DNA from: a virus
Lineage: Duplodnaviria > Heunggongvirae > Uroviricota > Caudoviricetes
Virus record (IMG/VR): IMGVR_UViG_2541047816_000005
Location: 1-47,623 of that record
Length of the DNA stretch: 47,623 bases
Reading direction: 5' to 3' (one strand)
Positions 31,202 to 31,630 of the stretch are shown here, piece by piece. Below the pieces are notes generated by a model, which had not been told where the DNA came from, made no database searches, and saw only the letters and a list, made by a program, of their open reading frames with translations. Position numbers and translations under genes: made by a program. Each line of letters starts with the position of its first letter. The first letter of the stretch is position 1.

Positions 31202-31630
31202 TCACGGTTTAAAATCCAGCACTCCATTGTGAAATACTTTATATACTTCCGGAGACGGCGGAACTGGTATATCAGCATGCTTCACCGCATTCATCGCTTC
31301 ACGACATAAATCGGGGTCTCCACCTTCTCTTTTAACCTGTAGCAGAAGACCATTCGGGGCCATATACATTCTCAGTGAACACTCTTTTCCTGAATACTTA
31401 CTCGCATCCTTTAACTGTTCTTCTATGGCTTTCCTGACCTGAATGGCATACTGCCTGATTTCTTCACTGGCATCAGGGGTACGTTCCGATGAGCTCAAAT
31501 TTTGCGACTTTATTAATTTATCTGAGTGATACAGAGAAGCATCATAATTATTTGTCGATACATCTTTTGTGCAGCCAGTTGTCAGACTGGCTAATATCAA
31601 AACAAGAACTGGTACAGCACGGCAATACAT
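31202..31630 (-). CDS. outer-membrane lipoprotein with TolA C-terminal (domain III)-like fold
   Basis: lipobox LTTGC with Thr at +2; C-terminal 85 aa align with the TolA C-terminus (GKECSLRMYMAPNGLLLQVKREGGDPDLCREAM...PPSPEVYKVFHNGVLDFKP). Confidence 0.7.
   Translation of the reverse strand: MYCRAVPVLVLILASLTTGCTKDVSTNNYDASLYHSDKLIKSQNLSSSERTPDASEEIRQYAIQVRKAIEEQLKDASKYSGKECSLRMYMAPNGLLLQVKREGGDPDLCREAMNAVKHADIPVPPSPEVYKVFHNGVLDFKP

Follow-up and report, generated by a model that had tools for sequence, protein, structure and literature searches.

The gene at positions 31202 to 31630 of the IMG/VR virus record IMGVR_UViG_2541047816_000005, a lambdoid prophage analysed here over its whole stretch of 47,623 nucleotides (the window), encodes a predicted lipoprotein with a genuine copy of TolA domain III (TolAIII), and it lies in the slot in which related phages carry their Shiga toxin (Stx) genes. 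The function that we favour, albeit with slightly less than even confidence, is that of a decoy of the TolA tip which would be tethered to the outer membrane and directed against TolA-dependent colicins and filamentous phages. We favour this reading because the gene family is spread over elements that exclude competitors (bacteriocin plasmids, pilus-encoding IncF plasmids and prophages), because of the pairing with TonB domains and because of the closeness of the domain to that of the host.

The TolA domain III lipoprotein and its relation to host TolA

The gene and its parts are located as follows.

31202..31630, minus strand: coding sequence of the 142-residue lipoprotein-TolAIII with ATG start and stop codon at 31202-31204 (open reading frame list, Pfam TolA_C, TolA matches in the PDB)
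31571..31630, minus strand: lipoprotein signal peptide and lipobox, residues 1-20, LTTG-C20 (from the sequence)
31472..31570, minus strand: linker of low complexity, residues 21-53 (from the model confidence and the substitution rates given below)
31205..31471, minus strand: TolA domain III, residues 54-142, comprising alpha1, beta1, beta2, alpha2, alpha3 and beta3 (alignment and model)
31639..31642, minus strand: Shine-Dalgarno motif GGAG, 8 nt 5' of the ATG (from the sequence)

Residues 54-142 align without gaps to residues 333-421 of E. coli TolA (phmmer against the PDB chains 1S62, 3QDP, 2X9A and 1TOL; E = 8e-27 to 4e-26), with 48 of the 89 residues (54%) being the same as in the E. coli domain. 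Both cysteines are kept (Cys84 and Cys109, corresponding to Cys363 and Cys388 of TolA) and the terminal LDFKP is identical. An earlier note on this DNA had described a nearly colinear match of the C-terminus to TolA including the Cys pair and the DFKP end, and had proposed a pairwise alignment as a check; the match is found as described and is significant. The Pfam profile TolA_C (PF06519) is matched with E = 3.8e-23 and 81.9 bits (cut-off 25) over profile positions 7-96 of 96.

The AlphaFold model was built from 51 diverse sequences, after a version based on 15 close homologues (predicted local distance difference test score, pLDDT, of 51.5) had been discarded. It reaches a pLDDT >90 over residues 51-142. 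Its best match is TolAIII 3QDP with a root-mean-square deviation of 0.9 Å over 85 residues and a target TM-score of 0.93, followed by 3QDR, 2X9A and 1TOL, so that the superposition on TolA domain III suggested in the earlier note gives the same answer as the alignment. According to the comparison of the model with 3QDP and the alignment, the TolAIII fold, three helices on a three-stranded sheet, is retained together with the positions of the disulfide pair. Taken together, the lipobox LTTG-C20, the TolA_C score and the agreement of the model with 3QDP confirm the description of the gene product as a predicted lipoprotein bearing a genuine TolA domain III.

The conservation differs between the regions of the domain. 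At the level of regions, the alpha3-beta3 segment shares 10 of 16 residues with TolA and 15 of 16 between the alleles, and the beta2 edge shares 6 of 9 with TolA. Four of the eight colicin A contact residues are identical to TolA. In helix alpha2 the charges are systematically altered with respect to TolA (LCQAALAAAKLAK to LCREAMNAVKHAD, 6 of 13 residues identical). As a whole, the E. coli prophage clade is 54-60% identical to E. coli TolA and at most 52% identical to any other lipoprotein form. For comparison, TolAIII of E. coli is merely 20-25% identical to the corresponding domains of Pseudomonas and Vibrio (PMC8928145).

The protein of the window is identical (100%) to WP_000271630.1 of E. 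coli CE10, and its signal reads MYCRAVPVLVLILASLTTG-C20. The lipobox cysteine Cys20 is shared by all 44 aligned, diverse family members, and the +2 residue that follows it is Thr in all four main alleles of the prophage gene, which are 65-94% identical to each other. An Asp at this position keeps lipoproteins in the inner membrane according to the Lol sorting rule. Since the +2 residue is Thr and not Asp, sorting to the outer membrane is to be expected, and lipoprotein-TolAIII is predicted from its sequence to be lipidated and located in the outer membrane. Residues 21-50 of the linker have a pLDDT <50 and are predicted to be disordered. The linker is also the fastest-evolving part of the protein, with ratios of non-synonymous to synonymous substitution rates (dN/dS) of 0.36-0.87 compared with 0.23-0.36 in the C-terminal domain, which is under purifying selection.

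The Prokaryotic Genome Annotation Pipeline (PGAP) and RAST name the gene product 'cell envelope integrity protein TolA' and 'TolA protein', respectively. A real TolA as stated by the databases, or a dead tolA fragment picked up by the phage, would agree with these names, with the TIGR02794 score of 74.2 bits (cut-off 59.45) and with the frameshift or truncation of some copies. We nevertheless consider this explanation very improbable. The TIGR02794 match is partial and covers model positions 266-362 alone, and the name TolA was assigned because the model clears its cut-off on these C-terminal 97 positions. The NF007065 model is matched far below its cut-off (104.6 bits versus 213) and over positions 297-386 alone. 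Domain I, the membrane anchor that couples TolA to TolQ-TolR, is missing from the 142-residue protein, in which residues 1-20 form a cleavable lipoprotein signal that is devoid of His and has no counterpart in the host gene. There is no long helical domain II either, as 33 residues predicted to be disordered separate Cys20 from the domain. Furthermore, the gene lies outside any tol-pal operon (tolQRA-tolB-pal), at a prophage locus between tRNA genes and nanS-p. An identity as TolA is ruled out on this anatomy, that is the lack of domain I, domain II and the tol-pal context. A dead fragment is contradicted by the purifying selection over alleles that differ by 32% and by the 142-residue frame being intact on thousands of contigs.

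The Shiga-toxin slot and the signals around the gene

In the blastn comparison with the Stx2a phage Stx2_95 the homology ends at 31888 and restarts at 31061, which leaves a unique insert of about 820 bp in the window. The matching interval of Stx2_95 consists of tRNA-Arg(tct), stx2A and stx2B, and that of the stx-negative phage phi296 measures about 125 bp. The lipoprotein-TolAIII cassette occupies exactly the Shiga-toxin slot. The coordinates of the neighbouring genes and the breakpoints with Stx2_95 thus bear out the cargo position downstream of Q, between the tRNA pair and the esterase gene, which the earlier note had likened to that of the toxin genes.

31062..31887, minus strand: cargo cassette without counterpart in Stx2_95 or phi296 (blastn breakpoints 31888 and 31061 or 31078)
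34171..34563, minus strand: late antiterminator Q, QuuD type (Pfam Phage_antitermQ, E = 7e-54; quuD in PGAP)
31995-32070, minus strand: tRNA(CAT), upstream of the lipoprotein-TolAIII gene (ARAGORN)
31909-31985, minus strand: tRNA-Arg(tcg), upstream of the lipoprotein-TolAIII gene (ARAGORN)
28642..30603, minus strand: NanS-p type esterase of 653 residues with DUF1737, SASA and DUF6645 (Pfam; 'SASA family carbohydrate esterase' in PGAP), the next gene downstream

Along the late strand, Q is followed by a porin gene transcribed in the opposite direction, by a methylase gene that is truncated, by tRNA(CAT) and tRNA-Arg(tcg), and then by the genes for lipoprotein-TolAIII, the NanS-p type esterase, holin, lysozyme and an Rz-type protein. 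Antitermination of the Q type leads to read-through of the late strand in lambdoid phages, and Q should drive the whole late strand of the window including the cargo gene.

The family evidence derives mostly from prophages in genomes and in IMG/VR. Among 80 IMG/VR loci the gene order is constant, comprising Q and methylase where detected, the tRNAs, the gene, any nanS/DUF1737 remnant, holin, lysozyme and Rz; in about 30 of the 80 neither Q nor a tRNA was matched upstream of the gene. No stx2A was found near the gene in any of these loci.

The position of the gene suggests a second possible function, namely a late-expressed antagonist of the Tol-Pal system. Produced from the Q-dependent transcript along with the lysis proteins, it would capture the TolB N-terminus at the outer membrane, prevent the removal of TolB from Pal, keep Pal off the cell wall and loosen the outer membrane, thereby assisting final lysis and the release of phage or periplasmic content, similar to the release of Stx, or the shedding of vesicles. 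This agrees with lipoprotein-TolAIII being encoded by the first protein-coding gene after the tRNAs in 80 of 80 loci, directly upstream of nanS and of holin, lysozyme and Rz, with the lack of a convincing promoter of its own in the window and with the beta3/C-terminal segment, which is used by TolB, being the best-conserved part of the domain. Furthermore, tol mutants hypervesiculate (PMC11032300, PMC7391070), and TolAIII exported alone by means of a signal sequence is described, in the passage of PMC6195910 that cites Levengood-Freyermuth 1993 and Wan & Baneyx 1998, as causing a leaky outer membrane and the release of periplasmic proteins. However, the affinity between TolA and TolB is weak (40-250 µM, at about 500-2000 TolA and 6000 TolB molecules per cell; PMC7066135), and the commonest prophage allele has a strong promoter-like site of its own. 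In addition, the outer membrane is already dealt with by spanins, and an Rz-type lysis protein is annotated. We therefore regard the antagonist as rather unlikely.

Three further signals were examined in the vicinity of the gene.

31708..31750, minus strand: imperfect inverted repeat (ATCATCCGGA ... TCCGGAGATGAT) with arms of 10 nt and 12 nt, a bulge and a loop of 21 nt
31761..31790, minus strand: sigma-70 promoter-like site TTTGCA-18-TATTAT, 9/12 (promoter scan)
31831..31852, minus strand: perfect 8-bp hairpin just 3' of tRNA-Arg (AGGCTATC-ATATAA-GATAGCCT; repeat search; fold of -13 kcal/mol, z = -2.6)

The earlier note had credited the gene with its own upstream inverted repeat at 31708..31750. 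The repeat exists, but its role as a signal is doubtful: the RNA fold of -10.2 kcal/mol is marginal (z = -1.8; 7 of 200 shuffles were as good), and the repeat is not conserved, being kept in alleles W and B, partly kept in allele C and missing in the commonest allele A. A general repeat search of the window did not report it. The promoter scan upstream of the gene yielded 3 sites versus 2.8 expected from shuffles, which corresponds to the chance level. Thus, a regulatory hairpin or promoter belonging to the gene itself is marginal or at chance level in this window. The commonest allele A has a promoter-like sequence TTGAGC-18-TATAAT (10/12) located 30 nt 5' of the ATG. The terminator-like hairpins at 30837-30856 and 30713-30728 are part of the shared backbone and not of the cassette.

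The window comprises the whole prophage between btsS (yehU) and mlrA (yehV), with flanks at 1..281 and 46337..47623; in O157:H7 this site is used by the Stx1 phage. The prophage of E. coli CE10 is otherwise near-identical but has a different early region and has lost its tail genes. The tRNA with the CAT anticodon is a tRNA-Met according to ARAGORN and a tRNA-Ile according to PGAP for the identical CE10 gene; presumably it belongs to the ileZ type with lysidine modification that is typically found in Stx phages. A mosaic junction was detected at 32111..32534 (minus strand), where the C-terminal 112 residues alone of an N6/N4 methylase are left. Directly upstream of this truncated gene lies a segment that is homologous to the post-Q region of Stx2 phages and includes a strong terminator-like hairpin (32452-32473). 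The junction resembles what is left of a second late-promoter/terminator module that has no Q of its own.

Relatives of the gene in prophages, plasmids and chromosomes

Of the 5426 complete E. coli genomes, 897 (about 16%) contain related sequences, and in 123 of these the match extends over 80% or more of the 701-bp query. The exact proteins of the window allele and of the commonest allele were each seen on at least 1000 contigs. No nucleotide differs between alleles W and B in codons 1-53, but their domains are 92% identical, which indicates recombination inside the gene. Several clusters have a frameshifted and extended C-terminus (...PLRRKYIKYFKMGCWILNP...), suggesting that the gene is decaying in some lineages. 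In the collection of sequenced phages, mEp460_ev081 is the sole carrier of a homologue at E <= 1e-5. Its locus (6711..8430) represents the context of the commonest allele and has the segment 30879-31070 of the window upstream of the gene and not downstream, so that the cassette has been inserted there at a slightly different point of the same region. No excess variability was seen at the colicin A contacts, as 2 of the 8 positions vary among the alleles, which is close to chance (about 22 of 89 positions vary).

An exhaustive profile-free search against 1.84 billion representatives resulted in 330 matches. Among the best 150 of these, 91 have at most 170 residues, and 51 of the 91 possess a lipobox. 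The plasmid and prophage contexts described in the following are a sample and not a census; all tested members match Pfam TolA_C. A lambdoid prophage of Salmonella encodes a lipoprotein-TolAIII of 146 residues between Q and holin. Among plasmids, 1334 records were matched, including 555 of Escherichia and 38 of Shigella. In the IncF leading region of pO157-type plasmids (pZ1816-1, 5947..6378) the lipoprotein (VAG-C) with TolA_C follows genes for a ParB-like protein, psiB, psiA and hok. On the Klebsiella IncR plasmid pKp-CTX-M (6406..7435) it follows a gene for a periplasmic thioredoxin-fold protein (CVYC, Pfam Thioredoxin_2), which is suggestive of a dedicated helper for the disulfide of the domain.

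Furthermore, 379 PLSDB records at >=99% identity carry a lipoprotein-TolAIII of 123 residues on small cloacin-like ColRNAI bacteriocin plasmids of K. pneumoniae. In pGSU10-3-4 (NZ_AP018675.1, 3526..4259) this gene overlaps by 4 nt with a gene for a secreted TonB C-terminal domain of 121 residues. The TolAIII-TonB pair of the ColRNAI plasmids is a neighbour of copG-parE, and its orientation is divergent to that of the bacteriocin-immunity-lysis operon. A lipoprotein-TolAIII is also encoded on a plasmid of Enterobacter that has a pore-forming colicin.

These contexts bear on the antagonist of Tol-Pal in both directions. Colicin plasmids likewise need protein release, as the antagonist would provide. 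However, the IncF leading region, the IncR plasmids with the gene beside that of the thioredoxin-fold protein, and the chromosomal loci have no link to lysis or release, and the ColRNAI copies are divergent from the colicin-lysis operon and located beside the copG-parE maintenance genes.

The prophage of the window contains a second exported tip copy.

24717..25049, minus strand: lipoprotein (LVMG-C, +2 Thr) fused directly to a TonB C-terminal domain (Pfam TonB_C, E = 1.4e-14; E. coli TonB in the PDB, about 5e-16)

This gene lies directly 3' of the lysis genes, and it has relatives in Stx1a phages, in ev017 and in phage 21. In PHROGs the family bears the label 'Rz-like spanin', which probably derives from the gene position and looks like a positional mis-annotation. 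The two lipoproteins of the window, carrying TolAIII and TonB domains, resemble the tandem pair on the ColRNAI bacteriocin plasmids.

In addition, a complete porin gene of the OmpC/NmpC type (32840..33982, plus strand) is located between Q and the tRNAs and runs against the direction of late transcription, an arrangement also present in DLP12. Since group A colicins use porins as translocators, the prophage may alter three parts of the route by which colicins enter.

In Klebsiella, Raoultella and Gibbsiella, lipoprotein-TolAIII genes coding for 134-142 residues were found at ordinary chromosomal loci without mobile-element genes nearby, the locus shared by Klebsiella and Raoultella being 3' of an M20 peptidase operon. 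Hence, the architecture is not confined to mobile elements. These stable chromosomal loci would fit a TolAIII scaffold that has been repurposed to bind another partner, such as a porin, Pal, CpoB, the entry protein of another phage or a host factor, and that would serve as an envelope modulator or as a virulence or fitness factor. The pairing with the periplasmic thioredoxin-fold protein on IncR plasmids, the recharged helix alpha2 with its 6 of 13 residues identical to TolA, the change of three colicin A contacts including K368 and the location in the classic place of virulence cargo (stx) are also in line with such a role. On the other hand, the prophage clade is nearer to the host TolAIII than to other lipoprotein forms, both edges used for strand augmentation (beta2 and beta3) are retained, and the occurrence of TonB C-terminal domains as partners suggests that the two import motors are what these proteins have in common. 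Taking both sides into account, a repurposed scaffold seems unlikely.

The putative decoy function and its comparison with known systems

A role as mimic of TolA, as already proposed in the earlier note, may be inferred from the fold, the predicted location, the genetic context and the published phenotypes of artificial periplasmic TolAIII. If the lipoprotein indeed acts as a decoy, it would be exported, lipidated at Cys20 and sorted to the outer membrane, from whose inner face TolAIII would hang on a flexible linker of about 33 residues, uncoupled from the TolQ-TolR motor. Group A (Tol-dependent) colicins and the N1 domain of the gene 3 protein (g3p, pIII) of filamentous phages need to bind TolAIII in order to be pulled inward. 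Directly below the outer membrane these invaders would encounter the decoy before TolA and would be captured unproductively, and the lysogen would thereby become tolerant of Tol-dependent colicins and filamentous phages.

Several published observations are relevant to such a mechanism. Both g3p N1 and the TolB N-terminus bind TolAIII by strand augmentation on beta3, colicin N appears to bind much as g3p does, and colicin A binds beta2, the opposite edge (PMC7391070, PMC3365938). The affinity of colicin A for TolAIII is 1.34 µM (PMC3365938). As the ligands of the invaders bind at about 1 µM and TolB binds at 40-250 µM, a moderate amount of decoy could block the invaders with little damage to the Tol-Pal system. 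Non-energised TolA is thought to reside below the cell wall (PMC8928145). Periplasmic g3p N1 sequesters TolA and leads to resistance to colicin A and to a drop in phage uptake by 4 logs (PMC10424213). The greater proximity of the prophage clade to the host TolAIII than to other lipoprotein forms is what mimicry predicts and is not required by a new function. A decoy is also in line with the good conservation of alpha3-beta3, with the invariant lipobox cysteine, the lack of Asp at +2 and the disordered linker, with the purifying selection on the domain and the abundance of the exact proteins, and with the promoter-like site of the commonest allele. In the 1993 work of Levengood-Freyermuth, engineered periplasmic TolAIII is reported to have conferred colicin tolerance as well.

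The following points weigh against a decoy. Protection of the lysogen would need expression in the lysogen, which is unsupported in this window given the chance level of its promoter-like site, and the gene is located within the Q-dependent late transcript. Three of the eight colicin A contacts are altered (K368 to Y/H, D377 to Q/E and P380 to R). K368 of TolA pairs with Tyr58 of colicin A, a residue that is essential for the stability of the complex (PMC3365938). Due to these changes colicin A may not be the target. The leakiness described for artificial periplasmic TolAIII in the cited passage of PMC6195910 makes a cost or another purpose possible. The chromosomal relatives in Klebsiella, Raoultella and Gibbsiella need not be defences. 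A general pairing of TolAIII and TonB lipoproteins in prophages has to be rejected, since in 80 of 80 other loci no TonB_C match was detected within 6 kb downstream. Furthermore, the PHROGs family that includes lipoprotein-TolAIII (5772) is listed with unknown function, no family among the defence models of PADLOC-DB 2.0 was matched at E <= 0.01, and no functional study of any lipoprotein-TolAIII member was found in the literature searched.

In a wider sense, exported copies of TolAIII, usually lipid-anchored, and of the TonB tip on mobile elements of Enterobacteriaceae (lambdoid prophages, IncF leading regions, IncR plasmids and bacteriocin plasmids) could represent a so far undescribed, broad immunity at the translocation step. 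It would protect against bacteriocins and phages that depend on Tol or Ton by titrating the invader and not the receptor, with the prophage of the window as an example with two decoys. We put this generalisation forward as a possibility only, with more doubt than confidence. In the literature searched we did not find lipid-anchored TolAIII and TonB C-terminal copies of mobile elements recognised as a class, nor a test of their function. The TolAIII fold itself, the effects of artificial periplasmic TolAIII on the cell, entry-blocking lipoproteins of phages and the listing of plasmid 'tolA' genes are already known.

If the decoy function holds true, it would explain part of the widespread and so far unexplained colicin tolerance of natural isolates, considering that related sequences are present in about one sixth of the complete E. 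coli genomes and on well over 1000 sequenced plasmids. Tolerance to filamentous phages that are specific for pili may have the same cause. The carriers include pO157-type plasmids and small bacteriocin plasmids of epidemic K. pneumoniae, and the decoy would be of relevance to bacteriocin- and phage-based therapeutics. Testing the hypothesis would require little effort, and the gene is widespread. If the protein is an antagonist of Tol-Pal, it would represent a new accessory lysis or vesiculation factor at the position of Shiga-toxin release. As a tool for Tol-Pal research, a natural TolAIII variant that is dominant-negative or selective could serve to dissect the competition between TolB, colicins and g3p. 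Under either reading the label 'cell envelope integrity protein TolA' is incorrect and needs to be replaced.

Among the known systems, domain III of E. coli TolA (about 333-421; 3QDP, 1S62, 1TOL, 2X9A and 3QDR) has the same fold and clear homology. Unlike TolA, the prophage protein has nothing but a lipoprotein signal and a short linker in front of this domain, and it is encoded by a gene of the late region. Engineered periplasmic TolAIII is the nearest experimental analogue, being likewise devoid of the motor in the periplasm, as is predicted for the prophage protein; in contrast to it, the natural protein is predicted to be lipid-anchored, has diverged by 46% and is found in a phage context.

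The plasmid 'tolA' genes listed in surveys as 'cell envelope integrity protein' without a proposed function, on small MOBRNA type 4 plasmids (PMC6807383) and on a cloacin-like K. pneumoniae plasmid (PMC10269471), belong to the same family of lipoproteins with TolA_C as the prophage gene, at 29-40% identity. The exclusion exerted by the N1 domain of Ff g3p/pIII blocks the same interaction, but there the ligand of the invader saturates the TolA of the host (PMC10424213). The decoy would be its mirror image, with a copy of host TolA saturating the ligand of the invader.

Cor of phi80, HK022 and N15 and Llp of T5 are small outer-membrane lipoproteins that protect against phages and colicins using the same route; they inactivate the receptor FhuA and are not known to have homology to TolA or TonB. 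Compared with Cor and Llp, lipoprotein-TolAIII would titrate the invader and not plug the receptor. The stx1 and stx2 cargo, finally, occupies the identical slot, from tRNA-Arg(tcg) to the position before nanS, and shares with the lipoprotein-TolAIII gene its presence or absence among close relatives, whereas the protein itself is unrelated to Shiga toxin.

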